Source: Tahibacter sp.
GTDB taxonomy: Bacteria; Pseudomonadota; Gammaproteobacteria; Xanthomonadales; Rhodanobacteraceae
Length of the DNA stretch: 64,000 nucleotides
Reading direction: 5' to 3'
NCBI RefSeq assembly: GCF_035481375.1
Contig: NZ_DATIGT010000191.1
Location: forward strand, 260-64,259
In this document: piece after piece, positions 48,621-59,835 of the stretch
Position numbering within the stretch: position 1 is the stretch's first letter
How the letters are laid out: every line of letters starts with the position of its first letter
Notes under the pieces: generated by a model
Databases searched by the model: none
Seen by the model: only the letters and a program-made list of their open reading frames with translations
Told to the model about the DNA's origin: nothing
Translations under genes and position numbers: made by a program

Positions 48621-48935
48621 TCAGCGGATCAGCAGGTCTTCTTCGAGCAGGCCGGTCGACAGCGCCGCGCTGAACCAGCGCGGCTGCTTGCCGCGGCCGC
48701 TCCAGGTCTCGCCCGGCGCCAGAGGATTGCGGTATTTCGGCTTCACCGTGCGCTTGCGCGCCGGAAACTGGCCGAACAGTTCTTCGATGGTGAAGCCTTC
48801 CTTGCGCGCGATCGCGACGAGGCGCGCGCGGACTTCGGCGGCGTGCTCGCGCTGCATTTCCTGCTGGCGCTGGTTCGCCTGCGCGATCAGGTCCGCCAGC
48901 TGCTGGGAGGTCAGAGAATCCAGGTCGATGGCCAT
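48621..48935 (-). CDS. H-NS-family nucleoid-associated protein (104 aa)
   Basis: I start at Met57 of ORF 48621..49103 (MAIDLDSLTSQQLADLIAQANQRQQE, coiled coil). The C-terminal DNA-binding motif is YRNPLAPGETWSGRGKQPRW. Confidence 0.85.
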   Translation of the reverse strand: MAIDLDSLTSQQLADLIAQANQRQQEMQREHAAEVRARLVAIARKEGFTIEELFGQFPARKRTVKPKYRNPLAPGETWSGRGKQPRWFSAALSTGLLEEDLLIR

Positions 48936-49197
48936 GGCGATCCTTGTGCCGGTCTCGTCGGGACGAACGCGCCCGCTCTCCGGACGGCAGGAGAGGACGC
49001 GTTCGTCGTATGTGGGTCCCTGAAACGCGATTTTGTGCCAAAACGGATTAGTAGCGCAAAATATGCGAGCCGCGCCCGACGCTTGGCGCGGACCCCATGG
49101 CACGGCATACCCGCTGCCCTAAATGGCCGGTCCGGGATACTATGGGCGTTGTCGCGGGAAGGGTGGGGCTGGATTCTTTACGTCTCAGGGGTGAGCA

Positions 49198-51913: not shown

Positions 51914-52240
51914 CTAAGGCTGTTTTTTCGCAGGATCGGGCGGTATCGGCCGGTTGGCCGCGTCATCGGGCGTGCCCGGACGACGATAGGCCGGAACGAC
52001 GTTCGTGTTCGGGTCGTAGCGGACCGTTTCGTAGGCCCGGTCTTTCGGCGGCACGTCGGTCACGTTGAGACGGCCGCTCGCGTCGCGCCACTTGTAGAGC
52101 GTCGGCGCGGTCGTCTGCATGTTCGGCGAGACCGGGGCCGCATGACGCAGCGCGGTCGGCAAGGTTTCGGGTGCGAAATACCACCAGGCCGCCGCGGCGG
52201 CCGCGAGCAGGGCGAGCGACCATCCGATCACGCGCCCCAT
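51914..52240 (-). CDS. DUF4124 domain protein (membrane-anchored)
   Basis: N-terminal hydrophobic segment. The motif LYKWRDASGRLNVTDVPP is typical of DUF4124. Confidence 0.75.
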   Translation of the reverse strand: MGRVIGWSLALLAAAAAAWWYFAPETLPTALRHAAPVSPNMQTTAPTLYKWRDASGRLNVTDVPPKDRAYETVRYDPNTNVVPAYRRPGTPDDAANRPIPPDPAKKQP

Positions 52241-52247
52241 TGCCGGA

Positions 52248-52679
52248 CTACTGCTGCGCCTTCGGGCAGAGCGAGTCGACCGTCGCCCGCGCGATGTTCA
52301 GTTCGGCCGAGCGTTCCTCAGGGGTCATGTCGACGGTCTTGCCGTCGCGCTGGACCTGCAGCTGCAGCGAGCTCGCCAGCAGTTCGACGCGCTTCTGCGC
52401 GTTCGCGCAGCGTGCGGCCGAGCTGTTGTCGGGCTGGGCGGGCTTGTTCGCCGCATTCGGATCGGCGGCGGCGGGTGCCGCGGCGGCTTCGGTCTGCGTG
52501 ATCGCCGCGCTCTGGTTGACGATCCTGACGTTGTCGAATTCGGTTCCCTTCGGCGGCGGCGCATCCGAGAAATGGACGATGCCGTTGGCGTCCTTCCACT
52601 TATATACTTTGTCTGCGGAATGGCCGGCAGTCGCGGCAACTGCTGCGAGCAGGCCGAAGGCGACTTGGATGGCTTTCAT
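52248..52679 (-). CDS. DUF4124 domain protein (exported)
   Basis: Signal MKAIQVAFGLLAAVAATAGHSA, then VYKWKDANGIVHFSDAPP. Confidence 0.8.
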   Translation of the reverse strand: MKAIQVAFGLLAAVAATAGHSADKVYKWKDANGIVHFSDAPPPKGTEFDNVRIVNQSAAITQTEAAAAPAAADPNAANKPAQPDNSSAARCANAQKRVELLASSLQLQVQRDGKTVDMTPEERSAELNIARATVDSLCPKAQQ

Positions 52680-52923: not shown

Positions 52924-53727
52924 ATGGAATCCAGCGAAAGTCCGCGCCGCAAGCCGCCGCACCGCGGCATCTATCTGCTTCCGAATCTGCTGACGACCGG
53001 CGCGATGTTCGCCGGGTTCTACGCCATCGTCGTCGCGCTGGCCGGCCGGCCCGAGGATGCGGCGATGGCCGTGTTCGTCGCGGGCCTCCTCGACGGTCTC
53101 GACGGCCGCGTCGCGCGCCTCACGAATACCCAGAGCGAGTTCGGCGTGCAGTACGACTCGCTGTCGGACATGGTCAGCTTCGGCGTGGCGCCGGCACTCG
53201 TGCTGTATGCGTGGAGCCTGTCGACGCTGCAGCAGCTCGGCCCGTTCTGGGGCAAGGTCGGCTTCGCCGCGGCGTTCATCTATGCCGCCTGCGCCGCGCT
53301 GCGCCTTGCGCGCTTCAACACGCAGGTCGGCGTCGTCGACAAACGCTATTTCCAGGGACTGGCCAGCCCTGCCGCCGCGGGACTCGTGATGTCCTTCGTC
53401 TGGATGATGAGCGCGAACGGTTTTGCGGGCTCCGACGAACTCGTGCAGCGCGTCGCGCCGGGCCTCGCAATCGCGGCCGGGCTGCTCATGGTCAGCCGCG
53501 TGCGCTATTTCAGCTTCAAGGCCTGGCCGCTGTCGGACCGCGTACCCTTCGTCGTGATTCCGACGGTCGTGCTGATTTTCGTCGCGCTCTACATCGATCC
53601 GCCGCTCGTGCTGTTCTCGATCGCGGCGCTCTATGTCGCGTCGGGCCCGTTGTTCACGCTGCTGGGCCTGCGCCGCCGGCGCGGTCAGCGCGAGCAGCCG
53701 CCGCGTCCGGAACCGCCGCCGCCGTGA
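52924..53727 (+). CDS. pssA: CDP-diacylglycerol--serine O-phosphatidyltransferase
   Basis: CDP-alcohol phosphatidyltransferase motif DGLDGRVARLTNTQSEFGVQYDSLSDMV. Polytopic. Confidence 0.9.
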   Translation: MESSESPRRKPPHRGIYLLPNLLTTGAMFAGFYAIVVALAGRPEDAAMAVFVAGLLDGLDGRVARLTNTQSEFGVQYDSLSDMVSFGVAPALVLYAWSLSTLQQLGPFWGKVGFAAAFIYAACAALRLARFNTQVGVVDKRYFQGLASPAAAGLVMSFVWMMSANGFAGSDELVQRVAPGLAIAAGLLMVSRVRYFSFKAWPLSDRVPFVVIPTVVLIFVALYIDPPLVLFSIAALYVASGPLFTLLGLRRRRGQREQPPRPEPPPP

Positions 53728-55415
53728 GCGCGACGACGGCCGGCCTGCTCGTTCGCGCCGCTACCGGCGACGACGCCCGTGCGTTCGCGCTGCTGGCGGA
53801 ACTGTCCGAGGCGCTGGCCGTGTCGCTCGATCTGCGGCGCACGCTGCCGTTCGCGCTGCAGCGCATCGCCGACTACATGGAAGCCGAAGCAGCGTCGCTG
53901 TTCCTGCTCGACGAAGAAACCGCCGAGCTCGAATGCAAGCTCTGCATCGGGCCGATCGACCTGCGCGGCCTGCGCCTGCGCCGCGACCAAGGCATCGTCG
54001 GGCACTCGCTGACCGACAAGGCCGTCATCATCGTCGCCGACGCGAGCAGCGATCCGCGCGTCTACAAGCGCGTCGACGAGCAGACCGGCTTCGTCACGCG
54101 CAGCCTCGTCTGCGTGCCGCTGACGACCGCGAAAGGCACGATCGGCGTGCTGGAACTCATCAACAAGCGCAGCGGCGAACCGTTCGACGCGACCGATGCG
54201 GGCATCCTGCGCCTGCTCGCGGCGCCGACCGCGATGGCGATCAGCAACGCGCGGCTCGCCAACGACCTCGTCGAACAGCAGCGGCTCAAGCGCGAATTCG
54301 ATCTCGCGCGCCGGCTGCAGAAACTGCTGCTGCCCAAGCGCCGGCGCGCCGGCTTTCCGCTGCTCGCGGTGAACCTGCCGGCGCACGAGATTTCCGGCGA
54401 CTTCTACGACTATTTCGACCTGCCGGACGGGCGCATCGGCTTCGTCGTCGGCGACGTCGCCGGCAAGGGGCTCGACGCGGCGCTGCTGATGACGCGCGCG
54501 GCGAGCCTGCTGCGCTGGGCCGGCAAGGACGGCCTCGCTCCGGGCGAATGGCTGCGCCGCGCGAACGAGGAGCTCTGCCAGACCACGCACGGCGGCCGGT
54601 TCGTCTGCGCCGTGGTCGGCTATTACACGCGCGCGACCGGCGATGTGGTGATGGCCGGCGCGGGGTTTCCGCCGGCGCTGTTCTATCAGGCCGGCACATT
54701 CGCCGAGTACCGCTCGGACGGACCGCCGCTCGGCATCGTCGTCGGCCAGGACTTCCACGAGACGCGGCTGCGGCTCGGCGACGGCGCGCTGTATTTCTTT
54801 TCCGACGGCGTGACCGACGTGCGCAAGGGCGAGGGCCGGCTCGGCCAGGACGGCGTGCGTGCGCTGATCGAGCATTACGCCGATGCGTCGCCCGAGGTGC
54901 GGCTGCGCGCGATGATTTCCGAACTGCGCCAGCTGCGGCTCGTCGACGACACGACGCTGCTGCTGCTCGAGGAAACGCGCGCACGCGCCGCCGTGCTGCT
55001 GCTGAGGCAGGCGTTTCCGGCCGAGGCCGAGCGCCTGCGCGCGATGCGCGCCGACCTGCGCCTGGCGCTCGACCGGGCCGGCGTGCCCGCCGATCTGCGC
55101 GACCGGCTCGTACTCGCCGTCGACGAGGCCTGCTGCAATATCATCCGTCACGCGTATGCGGGCGGCAGCGGCGACATCGTGCTATCCCTGCATCGTGACG
55201 GGGACGTGCTGGAATTCGAGTTGCGCGACGATGCGCCGGGTGTCGACCCGGAGCGCGTCACGCCGCGCGATCTCGCCGAATGCCGGGCCGGAGGGCTCGG
55301 CGTCAATTTCATCGACGCGCTGATGGATGGCTGGCGGCTGCAGCCGCGCGCTGGCGGCGTCGGCAACGTGTTGCGGATGTGGAAGCGCTGCCCGGCGGCG
55401 GAGGAAACGGCATGA
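53724..55415 (+). CDS. GAF - PP2C (SpoIIE/RsbU-type) phosphatase - RsbW-type Ser kinase (HATPase_c) fusion protein
   Basis: GTGA overlap with the pssA stop. GAF is SLFLLDEETAEL...GIVGHSL...VCVPL..KGTIGVLELINK. PP2C is HEISGDFYDYF...GFVVGDVAGKGLDAALLM...FFSDGVTD. Kinase is DEACCNIIRHAY, LRDDAPG, GGLGVNFI. Confidence 0.85.
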   Translation: MSATTAGLLVRAATGDDARAFALLAELSEALAVSLDLRRTLPFALQRIADYMEAEAASLFLLDEETAELECKLCIGPIDLRGLRLRRDQGIVGHSLTDKAVIIVADASSDPRVYKRVDEQTGFVTRSLVCVPLTTAKGTIGVLELINKRSGEPFDATDAGILRLLAAPTAMAISNARLANDLVEQQRLKREFDLARRLQKLLLPKRRRAGFPLLAVNLPAHEISGDFYDYFDLPDGRIGFVVGDVAGKGLDAALLMTRAASLLRWAGKDGLAPGEWLRRANEELCQTTHGGRFVCAVVGYYTRATGDVVMAGAGFPPALFYQAGTFAEYRSDGPPLGIVVGQDFHETRLRLGDGALYFFSDGVTDVRKGEGRLGQDGVRALIEHYADASPEVRLRAMISELRQLRLVDDTTLLLLEETRARAAVLLLRQAFPAEAERLRAMRADLRLALDRAGVPADLRDRLVLAVDEACCNIIRHAYAGGSGDIVLSLHRDGDVLEFELRDDAPGVDPERVTPRDLAECRAGGLGVNFIDALMDGWRLQPRAGGVGNVLRMWKRCPAAEETA

Positions 55416-55741
55416 ACGACATCGTGACCGAGCGGCACGGCAGTCTGACGCTCATCAAGCTCGCGGGCGAGGTCGACCTGTCCTGGTCGGGCCGCGTGCG
55501 CGACGCGATTCTCGCGGCGCTCGACACCGATTCGGTCGGTGTCGATCTCGGCGAGGTCAGCTACATCGATTCCTCGGGCATCGCGGCGCTCGTCGAGGGC
55601 CTGCAGACCGCGCGCGACAGCGGCCGGCGCTTCGTGCTCGTCGCGACGAGCAAGCCGGTGTTCGCCGTGCTCGAACTCGCGCGGCTCGACCGCGTGTTCA
55701 CGCTCGTGCCGGATCTCGCCGGCGTCGCGGAGGCGGGTTGA
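55412..55741 (+). CDS. STAS-domain protein (anti-sigma-antagonist / MlaB-like)
   Basis: ATGA overlap with the upstream stop. LIKLAGEVDLSWSGRVRDAIL...VDLGEVSYIDSSGIAALVEGL retains the DSSG phospho-acceptor context of SpoIIAA/RsbV. Confidence 0.85.
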   Translation: MNDIVTERHGSLTLIKLAGEVDLSWSGRVRDAILAALDTDSVGVDLGEVSYIDSSGIAALVEGLQTARDSGRRFVLVATSKPVFAVLELARLDRVFTLVPDLAGVAEAG

Positions 55742-56538
55742 GCGCCACGCCGGGCCAGCCTCTGGCGGCGCTCGGACGCGCGACCGTGCAGTCGGTCGCG
55801 GGCTTCGGCTATGCGGGCATGCTGCTCGCGGAAAGTCTCTGGTTCACGTTCTGGGGCTGGCGCCGCGGGCAGCCCGTGCGGCTTTCCGCGATCGTCGCGG
55901 AGATGCGGCGCGTCGGCGCCGACGCGCTGCCGATCGTCTGCCTGCTGTCTTTCACGATCGGCATCATGCTCGGCATCCAGTTCATTGCCGCGCTGAAGGA
56001 ATTCGGCGCGCAGTCGCAGGTCATCGTCGCCGTGGCCAAGTCCGTCACGCGCGAATTCGGCGCACTGATCACGGCGATCCTCGTCGCCGGGCGCTCGGGC
56101 TCGGCGCTCGCCGCGCGGATCGGTTCGATGACGGTGTCGCAGGAAGTCGACGCGCTCGCCGTCATCGGCATCGAGCCGGTGCGCTACCTCGTCGCGCCCG
56201 CGCTGATCGCGATGCTGATCATGCTGCCGGTGCTGACCATCTTCGCCGACGCCGTCGCGATCCTCGGCGCCGCGCTGTACAGCGCGCCGGCGCTCAACGT
56301 GACGCCGCAGGCCTACGTGATGCAGACGCTGTCGCTGCTCTCGCCGGGAGACCTGTGGCAGGGCATCGGCAAGAGCGCGGTGTTCGCCGTGCTCATCACT
56401 CTGATCGGCTGCAGCACGGGCTTCAGCGTGACCGGTGGCGCCGAAGGCGTCGGCCGCGCGACGACGCGCGCCGTCGTGCTGTCGATCTGCTACATCATCA
56501 TCGCCGACATGATCTTTTCGTACTTCCTCAACCGATGA
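55738..56538 (+). CDS. MlaE-family ABC transporter permease
   Basis: TTG start overlapping the STAS stop (TTGA). ...GADALPIVCLLSFTIGIMLGIQ..., REFGALITAILVAGRSGSALAARIGSMTVSQEVDAL. The TTG start is inferred; the N-terminal length fits the family. Confidence 0.85.
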   Translation: MSATPGQPLAALGRATVQSVAGFGYAGMLLAESLWFTFWGWRRGQPVRLSAIVAEMRRVGADALPIVCLLSFTIGIMLGIQFIAALKEFGAQSQVIVAVAKSVTREFGALITAILVAGRSGSALAARIGSMTVSQEVDALAVIGIEPVRYLVAPALIAMLIMLPVLTIFADAVAILGAALYSAPALNVTPQAYVMQTLSLLSPGDLWQGIGKSAVFAVLITLIGCSTGFSVTGGAEGVGRATTRAVVLSICYIIIADMIFSYFLNR

Positions 56539-57341
56539 ACGACGCCGGCTCGCCATTGATCGAGGTGCAGGGGCTCGAAGCGTGGTACGGCAAGCGCCGC
56601 ATCCTGCACGACATCGATTTTCGCGTCGATGCCGGCGAGATCCGCGTGATCATGGGCGGTTCGGGCTCGGGCAAGAGCACGCTGCTGCGGCATCTGCTCG
56701 GCCTGCATCAGCCCACGCGCGGCTGCATTCGCGTATTCGGCGTCGACATCGCCAGGGCCGGGCCTCGCGAGCTGCAGAAGGTGCGCCGGCGCCTCGGCGT
56801 GTCGTTCCAGGGCGGTGCGCTGCTGACCTCGCTGACGGTCGGCGAAAACGTCGCGCTGCCGCTGCGCGAACATCATGCGGACCTCAGCGAAAACCAGATC
56901 CGCATCATGAGCCGCATGAAGCTCGAAGTCGTCAATCTCGGCGGCTTCCACGATCTGATGCCGAGCCAGCTGTCCGGCGGCATGGTCAAGCGTGCCGCGC
57001 TGGCCCGCGCGATCGTGATGGATCCACAGCTGCTGTTCTTCGACGAACCTTCCGCCGGACTCGATCCGGTCGTCTCGGCCGAGCTCGACGAACTGATCCT
57101 GCGGTTGCGCGATGCGCTGCGCATGACCATCGTCGTCGTCACGCACGAACTCGAGAGCGCGTTCAAGATCGCCGATACGATTACCGTGCTCGACGAAGGG
57201 CGTGTGCTGATGACCGACACGGTCGACGCGGTGCGCCGCTCCGACAACGAACGCATCCAGGATCTGCTGAACCGACGGCCGCGCGAAGTCGTCGTCGATG
57301 CGGACGCCTATCTGCGCCGACTCACCGAGGAAGAAGCATGA
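56535..57341 (+). CDS. ABC transporter ATP-binding protein (MlaF-like)
   Basis: ATGA overlap. Walker A GGSGSGKST, signature LSGGMVKRAALARA, Walker B LLFFDEP. Confidence 0.9.
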   Translation: MNDAGSPLIEVQGLEAWYGKRRILHDIDFRVDAGEIRVIMGGSGSGKSTLLRHLLGLHQPTRGCIRVFGVDIARAGPRELQKVRRRLGVSFQGGALLTSLTVGENVALPLREHHADLSENQIRIMSRMKLEVVNLGGFHDLMPSQLSGGMVKRAALARAIVMDPQLLFFDEPSAGLDPVVSAELDELILRLRDALRMTIVVVTHELESAFKIADTITVLDEGRVLMTDTVDAVRRSDNERIQDLLNRRPREVVVDADAYLRRLTEEEA

Positions 57342-57354
57342 AACGGATTGCCGC

Positions 57355-58281
57355 GTGAAACGCGACCACGTCAATTACACCCTGGTCGGCGGCGTCGTGC
57401 TCGTGGCCCTCGCGCTGCTGCTGTTTACGCTGTACCTGATCACCGGCAAGCGCGGCGGCGAGGCGGACTATCACACCTACTATCGCAACGTGACCGGGTT
57501 GCGGCCCGGCGCGCCGGTGTTCTACCAGGGCTACCGCATCGGCCAGGTCGACGGCGTCGTGCCCGAGCGCGGCGACGACGGCACGCGCTATCGCATCGCG
57601 CTGAGCCTGCGCGCCGACTGGCCGATCCCCGAGGACTCGGTTGCGCGGCTGCAGTCGAGCGGGCTGCTCGCCGACGTCACGGTCGCGATCCGCGAAGGCA
57701 TGAAGAAGACGCCGCTGCCGGTCGGTGCGAAGATCAAGGGCGAGGAGAGCACCGACATCTTCGGCGCGATGAACGAACTCGCGGCCGAAGTCACGACGTT
57801 GACGCGCGACCAGATCACGCCGCTCGTGCGCAACCTGTCGCAGCGCGTGGATTCCATCACCGGCTCGCTCGACAAGAGCACGCCCGAAGTGCTGAACCAG
57901 GCGCGCGAACTGCTCGTGCGGCTGACCGAAGCCTCCGATTCGGTGAACGACCTGCTCAAGCCCGCCAACCGCGAGGCGGTCAGCGCGATCCTCGGCGACG
58001 TGCGCGCGCTGAGCCGCGACCTCGAGGCGAGCAGGATCAATCTCGACAGCGCACTCAAGGATATCGCCGCAATGACGCGAGACAACAAGCCCGGCGTCGA
58101 TGCGGCCGTCACCGACCTGCGCGCCGTGCTCGCGACCTTGTCGGGCCGCATCGACACGATCGTGCACCACCTCGACAGTGCGAGCCGCAACGTGGATGAA
58201 TTCAGCCGCGAGATCCGCAAGAATCCGAATCGTTTGCTGCTGGCACCGAAGAACGATGCGCCGGAGGAGTCCGAACGATGA
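57355..58281 (+). CDS. MlaD/MCE-family substrate-binding protein with a long helical C-terminal region
   Basis: I start at GTG 57355 (VKRDHVNYTLVGGVVLVALALLLF, TM anchor). MCE domain is VTGLRPGAPVFYQGYRIGQVDGV. The ORF track starts at 57298, inside the ATPase gene. Confidence 0.8.
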   Translation: MKRDHVNYTLVGGVVLVALALLLFTLYLITGKRGGEADYHTYYRNVTGLRPGAPVFYQGYRIGQVDGVVPERGDDGTRYRIALSLRADWPIPEDSVARLQSSGLLADVTVAIREGMKKTPLPVGAKIKGEESTDIFGAMNELAAEVTTLTRDQITPLVRNLSQRVDSITGSLDKSTPEVLNQARELLVRLTEASDSVNDLLKPANREAVSAILGDVRALSRDLEASRINLDSALKDIAAMTRDNKPGVDAAVTDLRAVLATLSGRIDTIVHHLDSASRNVDEFSREIRKNPNRLLLAPKNDAPEESER

Positions 58282-58883
58282 ACGCGGCGAAGGCCGTGCT
58301 GATGGCGCTGCTGCTGGGTCTCGGCGGTTGCGAGTCGGTGCCCGTACCCGAAGTGACCTGGTACCGGTTGCCCGATCCGGTGCTGCCGCCCGCGCACACG
58401 GCACGGTTCGCCGTGCCGCTCGACGTCGCGATCTTCAGCGCCGACGGCATCTACGCCGACCAGTCGCTGATCTACGCGCTCGACAAGGATGGACATGCGC
58501 TGCGCACGTATCACTATCGCCAGTGGAGCGATCCGCTCGCGCGCATGCTGCAGCGGCGGCTGATCCGTGTGCTGCGCGGCATCGACGCCGCACCGCAGGT
58601 CAGTGACCGCCTGCCGGCGAGCGCGAACGCGGTGCGTGTCAGTGCGGTGATCCAGCGCTTCGAGCGCGTCGAGGATGCCGGCGTGTGGCATGTCGACGTG
58701 GCGCTGCAGATGCGCGTCGAACAGGCGGGCACGCTGCTCGCCGAGGAGGTCTATGCCTCGCGTATCGCCGCGGCCGACGCGGAGATTCCCGCGACGATCG
58801 TCGCCTACGGCCAGGCGCTGGATCAGATTTATGCCGCGTTCGTCGCGCGGCTCGCGAGCCTCGGCGCGAAGGTGGCCGCATGA
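58278..58883 (+). CDS. ABC-transport auxiliary lipoprotein (DUF330/PqiC-like)
   Basis: ATGA overlap. Lipobox LLLGLGGC. Its size and its position after an MCE gene are typical. Confidence 0.7.
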   Translation: MNAAKAVLMALLLGLGGCESVPVPEVTWYRLPDPVLPPAHTARFAVPLDVAIFSADGIYADQSLIYALDKDGHALRTYHYRQWSDPLARMLQRRLIRVLRGIDAAPQVSDRLPASANAVRVSAVIQRFERVEDAGVWHVDVALQMRVEQAGTLLAEEVYASRIAAADAEIPATIVAYGQALDQIYAAFVARLASLGAKVAA

Positions 58884-59359
58884 GCGCGCTCGCACTGTCG
58901 CCGCACCGGCTGCGCCAGCTCGACGCGATGGGCGTCGTCGCGTACCGGCTGCGTTCGCGCGGTACGCCGGCACCTCCGGCGGCGGCCCTGCCGGAAGGCG
59001 ATGCGGTTGCGGCGGGCGACGCGAGCGGCGTGCGCATCGCCGTGATCTGCGAATCCGCGGCGGGGGCGAGTGCGAAGCTGCTGGCGGCCGCGCTCGGCGT
59101 CCCGGAAAACGCGCTGCACTGGCAGGCGCCGCGCGACGGCCGGCTGCCCGACCTCGATCAGAATGCCGCCGCGTTCCTCGTGCTCGGCCAGCCGCTCGCG
59201 CGCGTGCTCGGTGCGCAGCTGCCGACGGCGGCGCAGCAGGCGGCGACGATCATCGTCACGGCGGCGCCGGAAGAATGGCGCGGCAACGCGCTCGCGAAGC
59301 GGCTGCTGTGGCAGGCGCTGCGGCCGCTGCGCCGGCATCTGCGGGGGCAGTCGTGGTAG
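58880..59359 (+). CDS. DNA polymerase III psi-subunit-like protein (HolD-like)
   Basis: ATGA overlap. It lies directly upstream of rimI, as holD does in enterobacteria. The N-terminal RLRQLDAMGVVAYRLR and C-terminal NALAKRLLWQAL resemble HolD end motifs. Weak similarity judged by eye. Confidence 0.5.
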   Translation: MSALALSPHRLRQLDAMGVVAYRLRSRGTPAPPAAALPEGDAVAAGDASGVRIAVICESAAGASAKLLAAALGVPENALHWQAPRDGRLPDLDQNAAAFLVLGQPLARVLGAQLPTAAQQAATIIVTAAPEEWRGNALAKRLLWQALRPLRRHLRGQSW

Positions 59360-59361
59360 CG

Positions 59362-59835
59362 ATGCTGAAATCCGGCATGCCGGACATGCGTCCGCTGCGT
59401 CTGGAAGAAGTGCCCGACGTCGCGGCACTCGAAGCGCGCGCCTACGAATTTCCGTGGAGCGAGGGCATCTTCCGCGACTGCCTGCGCGCCGGCTACAACT
59501 GCTGGGTGCTCGTGCGCGACGGCATCATCATCGGCTATGGGATTCTGTCGGTTGCCGCTGGCGAGGCGCACGTACTCAATGTCTGCGTGTCGCCCGACGC
59601 ACAAGGCGAAGGCCACGGCCGCCGGCTGATGCGCCGGCTCATGGATCTGGCGCGCTGGCACAGCGCCGAACGGATCTTCCTCGAAGTGCGGCCGAGCAAT
59701 CCGCGCGCGATCCAGCTCTACCACTCGCTGGGTTTCAACGAGATCGGCCGGCGTCCGAACTATTACCCGGCCGCGCGCGGACGCGAGGATGCGATCGTGA
59801 TGGCGCTGGAACTGCTCGCGCCGGACGTCGGCTGA
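59362..59835 (+). CDS. rimI: Ribosomal-protein-alanine N-acetyltransferase
   Basis: GNAT fold: AHVLNVCVSPDAQGEGHGRRLMRRLMDLA...IFLEVRPSNPRAIQLYHSLGFNEIGRRPNYY. Confidence 0.88.
   Translation: MLKSGMPDMRPLRLEEVPDVAALEARAYEFPWSEGIFRDCLRAGYNCWVLVRDGIIIGYGILSVAAGEAHVLNVCVSPDAQGEGHGRRLMRRLMDLARWHSAERIFLEVRPSNPRAIQLYHSLGFNEIGRRPNYYPAARGREDAIVMALELLAPDVG

Follow-up and report, generated by a model that had tools for sequence, protein, structure and literature searches.

We examined a window of 64,000 nucleotides from a metagenome-assembled genome (MAG) of Tahibacter sp. (NCBI RefSeq assembly GCF_035481375.1, contig NZ_DATIGT010000191.1, positions 260 to 64,259 of the forward strand), in which genes of partner-switching type lie within an operon for a lipid ATP-binding cassette (ABC) transporter. 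Seven genes on the + strand are tightly packed between positions 52924 and 58883, with overlapping stop and start codons that were read from the DNA. The first gene of this co-oriented cluster is pssA (52924-53727, 267 amino acids (aa)), whose product is a CDP-diacylglycerol-serine O-phosphatidyltransferase (Pfam PF01066, CDP-OH_P_transf; NCBIfam TIGR00473 pssA equivalog, 112 bits against a cut-off of 107). Its stop codon overlaps, in the sequence GTGA, the GTG start of a gene for a 563-aa protein that combines a GAF domain, a PP2C phosphatase and a Ser kinase (53724-55415), hereafter the fusion protein. A single-domain STAS protein of 109 aa follows (55412-55741; Pfam STAS, E 1e-15, and STAS_2), joined to the fusion gene through ATGA and to the next gene through TTGA. 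This next gene encodes an MlaE-family permease of 266 aa (55738-56538; PF02405, E 5e-70; NCBIfam TIGR00056, 211.2 bits against a cut-off of 212.2), for which TTG is a plausible start codon. The gene of an MlaF/MceG-family ABC ATPase (56535-57341, 268 aa; ABC_tran, PF00005) overlaps the permease gene in ATGA, and 13 nt separate its stop codon from the GTG start at 57355 of the gene for an MCE protein (57355-58281, 308 aa; MlaD/MCE, PF02470). Through another ATGA the latter is linked to the gene of a PqiC/MpcA-like outer-membrane lipoprotein of 201 aa (58278-58883; ABC_trans_aux/DUF330, PF03886). The G+C content is 66-73% in the window and 69% in the stretch from 52.2 to 60.3 kb. An initial annotation, made from the sequence, had described this seven-gene operon with its 4-nt overlaps and 13-nt gap; Pfam, NCBIfam and the reading of the DNA agree with it on gene content, coordinates and junctions.

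The fusion protein carries two enzymes of opposite activity behind a sensor. Pfam places the GAF domain at residues 35-173 (matched by PF13185, PF01590 and PF13492), the SpoIIE/PP2C domain at 234-416 (PF07228, E 1e-37) and HATPase_c_2 at 431-553 (PF13581, E 6e-26). As in known partner-switching modules, the phosphatase is of the SpoIIE/RsbU type with the metal-binding Asp motifs, namely SGDFYD (224-229), GDxxGKG (243-249), DGxT (361-364) and DDxT (408-411), and the kinase is a GHKL Ser kinase of the RsbW/SpoIIAB type with its N box (E468/N472/H476), G1 box (D502/A504) and G2 box (G523/G526). The motifs EACCNIIRHAY, DDAPG and GGLGVNF, which the initial annotation had quoted for the kinase, and IDSSGIAAL of the STAS protein are all present in the translations. 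In an alignment of 80 fusion orthologues (40-90% identity) the PP2C and kinase motifs are at least 80-95% conserved, and the NCBIfam RsbW equivalogs match the kinase weakly, under their cut-offs. Homologues of the fusion protein number 788 at E<=1e-20, and it is 82% identical to its counterpart in T. aquaticus. According to Pfam its input domain is GAF, not REC as in regulators of the HsbR/CrsR type. The GAF domain also gave weak NCBIfam matches, far below the cut-offs, to the N-terminal GAF domains of PtsP (EI-Ntr; E 1e-8) and NifA (E 5e-5), which we treat as a lead towards a metabolite ligand and nothing beyond.

The STAS protein, which is 100% identical to an NCBI Tahibacter entry, was aligned with 67 orthologues (42-88% identity). 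Within the stretch Y51-I-D-S-S-G-I-A-A-L-V-E62, nine positions are identical in all 67 orthologues and the other three in at least 50, and the pair D53-S54 is invariant. Helix alpha3 is largely conserved, and residues past about 99 are not conserved among the orthologues. In profile alignments Ser54 (codon 55571-55573, + strand) shares its column with Ser58 of SpoIIAA and Thr52 of E. coli MlaB. The STAS protein is the predicted substrate of the fusion protein, with Ser54 as the predicted phospho-acceptor; the acceptor context IDSSG proposed initially is indeed conserved, and is here refined to the first Ser after Asp53. The AlphaFold2 model (mean predicted local distance difference test score (pLDDT) 91.5) places Ser54 in the first turn of helix alpha2 (54-69) and also contains a strand beta5 (97-99) and a short helix (102-107) of lower confidence. 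A single-domain STAS protein with a phosphorylatable-type Ser after Asp at the start of alpha2 is likewise a component of partner switches. Foldseek comparison of the model with TM1442, SpoIIAA (from the SpoIIAB complex) and RsbV gave template-modelling (TM) scores of 0.84-0.88, and the NCBIfam anti-sigma-factor-antagonist family TIGR00377 matched at 66 bits against a cut-off of 53.45. Among PDB sequences searched with phmmer, the best match was TM1442 (9e-10) and SpoIIAA reached 1e-4; the MlaB chains had E values of 0.17-0.23. Sequence and model thus assign the protein to the phosphorylatable SpoIIAA/RsbV type, outside the MlaB family. It does share with MlaB an operon with mlaE, mlaF and an MCE gene.

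The transporter genes had initially been called Mla/MCE-type. The MlaE, MlaF-like and MCE parts stand, whereas the type is the Mla-Pqi chimeric (Mpc) one rather than Mla proper: an MlaE-like permease, an MlaF-like ATPase, a long MCE protein and a PqiC-like lipoprotein are encoded in one operon, without MlaC or MlaA. The closest solved relatives of the ATPase are P. aeruginosa MlaF (8e-55), M. smegmatis MceG (6e-49) and E. coli MlaF (2.5e-46). The MCE protein has an N-terminal membrane anchor, an MCE domain and an MpcD-like helical C-terminal region of ~170 aa (weak Pfam matches to helical families; NCBIfam Mtu_fam_mce), and the signal peptide of the lipoprotein ends, as read from the translation, in the lipobox LGGC. 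MpcEFDA of Brucella abortus (EMBO J 2025, PMC12436622) has the same four parts in the same gene order, an MCE protein of ~310-330 aa with a helical extension, and a STAS module directly N-terminal to the permease; this module, at the N-terminus of MpcE, is homologous to MlaB, and the complex has been proposed to span the periplasm (PMC12436622). Homologues with the same STAS-MlaE fusion are encoded on plasmids of Azospirillum oryzae (387 aa; STAS_2 30-104, MlaE 172-381) and Ruegeria sp. (374 aa), followed in both by genes for an ATPase, an MlaD-family protein and an auxiliary lipoprotein. A STAS module directly N-terminal to the permease is therefore a trait of the family; the window supplies it as a gene of its own, from a different STAS subfamily. 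Whereas the Mpc STAS domain is fused to the permease and MlaB-like (D-T-G-G; D-T-G/V-G in the Azospirillum and Ruegeria domains), the window MlaE has no STAS domain at its N-terminus and the separate STAS protein upstream reads D-S-S-G. BLASTP of the window STAS protein against the Azospirillum and Ruegeria fused proteins was not significant, so the separate protein is not simply a split-off Mpc STAS domain; tblastn of the STAS protein against plasmids matched only stand-alone STAS genes of actinobacteria and cyanobacteria. No kinase or phosphatase gene lies beside the two plasmid operons examined, in contrast to the GAF-PP2C-kinase gene of the window.

Conservation of the arrangement was assessed with a profile scan built on the fusion alignment and run on one genome per GTDB species, which gave at least 584 relatives; for the top 80 loci, gene content was called by tblastn with the window proteins. 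The STAS gene directly followed by the MlaE gene was found in 65 of the 80 loci, and the complete order fusion-STAS-MlaE-ATPase-MCE-lipoprotein in 43; the other 22 STAS-MlaE loci are mostly cut by a contig end, and in 3 of the 80 the contig ends at the fusion gene. These 65 loci come from Lysobacterales (Tahibacter, Dokdonella, Rudaea, Aquimonas, Chiayiivirga and Denitratimonas), from other Gammaproteobacteria (e.g. Sulfuriflexus) and from Rhodospirillales (Ferrovibrio, Dongia, Thalassospiraceae), and in the most distant of them the fusion protein is ~40% identical to that of the window. Cultured strains with the locus include Tahibacter aquaticus DSM 21667 (L003), Dokdonella soli JCM 15421 (L023) and Denitratimonas tolerans KACC 17565 (L034). 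A neighbourhood survey had been proposed initially as a check that could overturn the idea, and it placed the adjacency in two proteobacterial classes rather than in this genome alone. Since it recurs in 65 of 80 species-representative genomes carrying the fusion, the arrangement is far beyond chance.

In the reverse search, 1.84 billion representative proteins were compared with a STAS-family profile; this gave 36,615 matches (2,133 at <1e-10), and gene contexts were inspected for six representatives across the best 150 STAS matches (E 8e-35 to 9e-21). MlaE is the next gene in all four STAS-found contigs with enough downstream DNA (L084, L086, L088 and L089), and in all nine when the contigs L091-L095 introduced below are included. 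The order is SpoIIE, HATPase_c_2, STAS, MlaE in L084; two DUF4124 genes, then pssA, GAF-SpoIIE, HATPase_c_2, STAS, MlaE and ATPase in L086; the full gene order in L088; and STAS followed by four transporter genes in L089. The kinase is a separate gene of 136-145 aa between the GAF-PP2C gene and the STAS gene at L062:464-2496, L084:1-2054 and L086:1791-3810, and L090 (501-1263) shows the kinase and STAS genes only. The STAS-MlaE linkage thus holds with the kinase fused to the phosphatase or separate from it. At one locus, L066 (5648-7375), a second fused regulator of HsbR-like REC-SpoIIE-HATPase_c_2 architecture lies directly upstream of the GAF-type fusion, and two inputs may converge there on one STAS protein.

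A natural STAS-MlaE fusion of this subfamily was sought among the best 150 of the 36,615 profile matches. The candidate P0301 (STAS + MlaE, 281 aa) was discarded as an assembly artefact with frameshifted stretches at both ends, and the fused frame of L044, the only one among the 65 loci, comes from an error-prone long-read MAG with other broken genes; like P0243, these apparent fusions are frameshift artefacts of metagenome assemblies. STAS and MlaE genes in the same frame split by a single stop codon occur at about chance level. Counts of STAS-MlaE domain architectures are to be read with care.

The gene upstream of the fusion is pssA in 61 of the 80 loci, all of them in Lysobacterales or the Marinicella group. 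Outside that clade the upstream gene varies (MscS, TerB, LemA, endonuclease III, a NarL-type regulator, or the REC-type PP2C-kinase of L066). No sigma factor was found upstream of the fusion in other clades among the inspected loci, where the non-Mla neighbours vary from clade to clade. In the window, neither the open reading frame list nor a domain search gave a sigma or anti-sigma gene, from 48.5 to 64 kb, that the kinase might bind and release, as the initial annotation had noted for this locus, and none is conserved upstream in other clades. Across classes, conservation of the neighbourhood extends to the Mla-like genes alone, and their stop and start codons often overlap. We lean slightly towards the view that the module serves one purpose, which is to switch an envelope phospholipid transporter on and off post-translationally.

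A model for how a STAS protein could act on such a transporter is E. coli MlaFEDB. Helices alpha1-alpha3 of MlaB bind the helical subdomain of MlaF, with helix alpha2 at the centre of the ATPase-binding face and Thr52 central in the interface; T52E weakens binding and T52A cripples function (PMC7367683). Without MlaB the ATPase is not retained on MlaE, and MlaB itself binds MlaF with minimal contacts to MlaE or MlaD. The Tahibacter locus resembles this system (PMC7367683) in having a small STAS protein in an MlaE/MlaF/MCE operon, in which the residue after the conserved Asp (Thr52 in MlaB, Ser54 here) starts helix alpha2. It also resembles it in the C-terminal tail of the ATPase, which is of equal length (~20 aa) and ends in a Tyr/Leu-rich helix; the tail, NRRPRxxxxDxDxYLxRLT (246-264), is conserved in 59 orthologues and matches the MlaF "handshake" extension in length, although the two do not align residue for residue. 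The differences concern the kinase and phosphatase, neither of which is known for E. coli MlaB and both of which are encoded next door here; the STAS protein, which is SpoIIAA-type with a modelled beta5 and short alpha4 and fails the MlaB model; the gene position, upstream of mlaE here and at the operon end for E. coli mlaB; and the long MCE protein and PqiC-like lipoprotein, which replace MlaC and MlaA.

The same switch was also found with a canonical Mla cluster. An abundant, uncultured gammaproteobacterial lineage is represented by L072 (7914-13828), which is from a complete MAG of 2.6 Mb (CP070821.1), and a search for relatives of its STAS protein led to five more contigs (L091-L095); this STAS family has 3,769 homologues at <1e-10 (one protein in 48 data blocks). 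In L072, L091-L093 and L095, the GAF-PP2C-kinase and STAS genes head a cluster of MlaE (263 aa), MlaD (148 aa), MlaA and MlaC, with a convergent ATPase gene and no mlaB in the cluster; the whole cluster is visible in L072 and in these four contigs, which are long enough. The L072 permease is 35% identical to the window MlaE, whereas other Gammaproteobacteria at equal distance have 58-60%. For the L072 fusion, STAS protein and ATPase, identity to the window proteins is 42%, 48% and 66%, on a par with other Gammaproteobacteria, and the ATPase has the same C-terminal tail. By these identities the cytoplasmic trio of switch, STAS protein and ATPase is retained while the membrane and periplasmic parts are exchanged, and a kinase-linked STAS protein appears to stand in the place that MlaB occupies in E. 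coli-type systems. Retention of the trio when the permease was swapped is the best available hint that the STAS protein acts on the ATPase. On the opposite strand, 3-5 kb beyond the Mla cluster, an Rsd/AlgQ (anti-sigma-70) gene was observed at L091:12100-12555, L093:12989-13430 and L095:8058-8528; it is the sole sigma-related gene seen near any examined locus, and its proximity is probably lineage synteny.

Joint retention of fusion, STAS protein and ATPase could also be read in another way. RsbW-type kinases follow a canonical logic in which RsbV displaces sigma-B from RsbW, and by the same logic the kinase domain might itself be the effector, holding the ATPase or permease inactive until unphosphorylated STAS protein displaces it. 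We regard this as very unlikely, because an RsbW-type domain that binds an ABC ATPase has no known precedent, and MlaB and the fused Mpc STAS domains point to the STAS protein as the transporter-binding part. That the STAS protein fills the role of MlaB is supported by the Mpc STAS-permease fusions and by the L072 cluster without mlaB. The initial proposal of an MlaB analogue is accordingly kept with respect to these two points and the operon position, and is given up with respect to sequence and fold, which place the protein outside the MlaB family.

In the scheme that we favour, the GAF domain of the fusion protein would sense a cytoplasmic ligand, and the signal would set the balance between the RsbW-type kinase and the PP2C phosphatase, both acting on Ser54 of the STAS protein. 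By analogy with MlaB, unphosphorylated STAS protein would use its alpha1-alpha3 face to dock onto the helical subdomain of the ATPase, which would thereby be stabilised or activated on the permease. Phosphorylation of Ser54, in the middle of this face, would disrupt the contact and transport would stop; the opposite polarity is also possible. Transporters of Mpc type, to which this one belongs, have been proposed to connect the inner and outer membranes. The domain make-up, the conserved catalytic and acceptor residues and the conserved gene linkage are observed, whereas STAS-ATPase binding, STAS phosphorylation, switch polarity and the GAF ligand are what we infer. We judge it as likely as not that reversible Ser phosphorylation of a STAS subunit gates an MCE-type phospholipid ABC transporter, with a metabolite-sensing GAF domain deciding between kinase and phosphatase.

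Several observations weigh against this scheme. The first group concerns the resemblance to MlaB. The STAS model superposes on MlaB with TM scores of 0.60-0.71 in Foldseek and does not have the minimal MlaB-type fold, which lacks the fifth strand and last helix; the NCBIfam family mlaB_1 (NF033618) gave 21.6 bits against a cut-off of 90; and the identity is 23% to E. coli MlaB and 22-23% to the fused Mpc STAS domains. MlaFE-type transporters are able to function without any STAS protein. Veillonella MlaF retains its C-terminal extension without MlaB, so the ATPase tail is no proof of STAS binding, and together with the poor residue alignment this led us to downgrade the tail as evidence for an MlaF-like handshake. 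The second group concerns gene neighbourhoods. In 11 of the 80 loci, of Marinicella type, the order is pssA-fusion-S9 peptidase and neither STAS nor Mla genes occur within 8 kb, so that the substrate of the kinase must be encoded elsewhere, and L062 (464-2496) has a STAS gene and a separate kinase gene without Mla genes; the switch is therefore able to occur away from the transporter. Finally, L029 and L036-L038 have STAS and MlaE genes without an ATPase gene at the locus. As to the details of these loci, pssA overlaps the fusion gene in the Marinicella-type loci (L050 (7097-11658), L043, L047, L049-L055, L061, L067), opposite-strand FHA, eukaryote-like PP2C and Ser/Thr kinase genes lie downstream in L062, and in L036 (9792-11797) a DUF481 outer-membrane protein gene follows STAS-MlaE, the MCE gene being absent from the locus, like the ATPase gene, in L029 and L036-L038.

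The loci without Mla genes raise the question of whether the output of the switch lies elsewhere, as it does for CrsR/CrsA (sigma-S) or HsbR/HsbA (FlgM, diguanylate cyclase), so that the module would only be co-expressed with the transporter. Fused PP2C-kinase regulators with trans-acting STAS partners exist, SypE/SypA among them, the STAS protein belongs by sequence and fold to the anti-sigma-antagonist family, the fusion lacks neighbouring Mla genes in the 11 Marinicella-type loci and L062, and the Rsd/AlgQ gene is not far away in the lineage of L091, L093 and L095. However, none of the clades has a conserved sigma or anti-sigma gene near the module, the Mla-like genes are the only neighbours kept across classes, and the linkage survives both fission of the kinase gene and the swap of transporter type. 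We consider an output elsewhere unlikely.

The loci without an ATPase gene bear on another possibility, in which the STAS protein acts on the permease or on complex assembly and not on the ATPase, as a detached version of the N-terminal STAS domain of MpcE. The STAS-MlaE adjacency is the most persistent link, holding even in L029 and L036-L038, and STAS is fused to MlaE in the Mpc homologues. On the other hand, the divergence of the STAS protein is not raised by the replacement with a 35%-identical permease in the L072 lineage, and the E. coli precedent is one of binding to MlaF with minimal contacts to MlaE or MlaD. A permease target is in our view very improbable, and the ATPase remains the target in the scheme that we favour.

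The position of pssA at the head of the operon, noted in the initial annotation, holds in the window, but the linkage is limited to Lysobacterales and the Marinicella group. It would be compatible with a switch that controls phospholipid synthesis, through PssA alone or through PssA and the transporter: the pssA stop codon overlaps the fusion start, pssA is directly upstream in the 61 loci mentioned above, and the pssA-fusion pair is retained in the Marinicella group without STAS or Mla genes at the locus. The clade restriction argues against PssA as the target. Other Gammaproteobacteria and all Alphaproteobacteria have no pssA linkage yet keep switch-STAS-MlaE, and the STAS gene tracks MlaE, not pssA. 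We consider control of PssA very improbable.

In relation to known partner switches, the module shares with Bacillus RsbU/RsbW/RsbV and SpoIIE/SpoIIAB/SpoIIAA a PP2C phosphatase, a GHKL Ser kinase and a STAS protein with Asp-Ser at the start of alpha2, whose fold is the one matched above at TM 0.84-0.88 for RsbV and SpoIIAA. It differs from them in that kinase and phosphatase are fused behind a GAF domain, no sigma factor gene is nearby and the partner genes encode a membrane transporter. HsbR/HsbA of Pseudomonas, CrsR/CrsA of Shewanella, SypE/SypA of Vibrio fischeri and the HenR-STAS-glycosyltransferase system of Anabaena (PMC13555669) likewise have opposing activities on one polypeptide and a single STAS partner, and their output can be other than a sigma factor. 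Their input is REC and their targets are flagellar, cyclic di-GMP (c-di-GMP), sigma-S or polysaccharide functions, in contrast to the GAF input and lipid ABC transporter found here. All parts of the present module come from known families, and non-sigma partner switches are known (SypE/SypA; the Anabaena glycosyltransferase system, PMC13555669).

Close relatives of the STAS subfamily also occur as domains in other proteins (P0314, P0338, P0364, P0347 and P0267), at the C-terminus of TLC/MFS-type transporters of 830-844 aa, in duplicate behind a WecG glycosyltransferase, and joined to an RsbW-type kinase. Transporters and enzymes that carry a phosphorylatable STAS domain seem to be a wider theme.

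Around the operon lie an H-NS-like gene, proS, two DUF4124 genes, the gene of a 159-aa protein and rimI, and further genes for a Rieske protein, a CitMHS/TrkA-C permease, trmB and thiG. The 159-aa protein (no family match) and rimI are encoded downstream of the lipoprotein gene, with 4-nt overlaps (58880-59835); the pair resembles holD-rimI of E. coli. The 159-aa gene was detected in just 8 of the 80 loci, mainly in the closest relatives, and rimI is present in nearly all Lysobacterales loci having sufficient downstream sequence. On the - strand, the two DUF4124 genes (51914-52679) are divergent from pssA; L086 has both as well, and Marinicella L050 has a similar gene upstream of pssA. About 4 kb before the operon, a - strand gene (48621-49103) encodes the H-NS-like protein, whose C-terminal domain is Histone_HNS.

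Kolich et al. 2020 (PMC7367683) raised phosphorylation of MlaB as an "intriguing possibility", with no kinase and no evidence. Our full-text search of the searchable library after that MlaFB structure paper found no link of MlaB to a kinase. Nor did it find a paper in which STAS phosphorylation or a PP2C-kinase pair is connected with an Mla/MCE transporter, in line with the initial view that such a system is uncharacterised. A 2021 review of stand-alone STAS proteins makes no mention of Mla or ABC transporters, and a 2023 phylogenomic survey of Mla components makes no mention of kinases.

Little is understood of how phospholipid traffic between the inner and outer membranes is tuned in bacteria, and post-translational control of ABC transporters is in general poorly known. 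In this locus family, sensor, kinase, phosphatase, STAS protein and transporter are encoded in one operon, which supplies the parts that were missing for phosphoregulation of MlaB. The system is widespread and genetically clean, and its presence in cultured strains and in a lineage with canonical Mla makes the question directly testable. If the scheme is true, this would be the first kinase/phosphatase pair for an MlaB-like subunit, and partner switching would have been re-used on the ATPase of a membrane transporter instead of a sigma factor, so that a membrane transporter would join the short list of non-sigma partner-switching outputs. In Lysobacterales, phosphatidylserine synthesis through pssA might then be coupled to lipid export or import.

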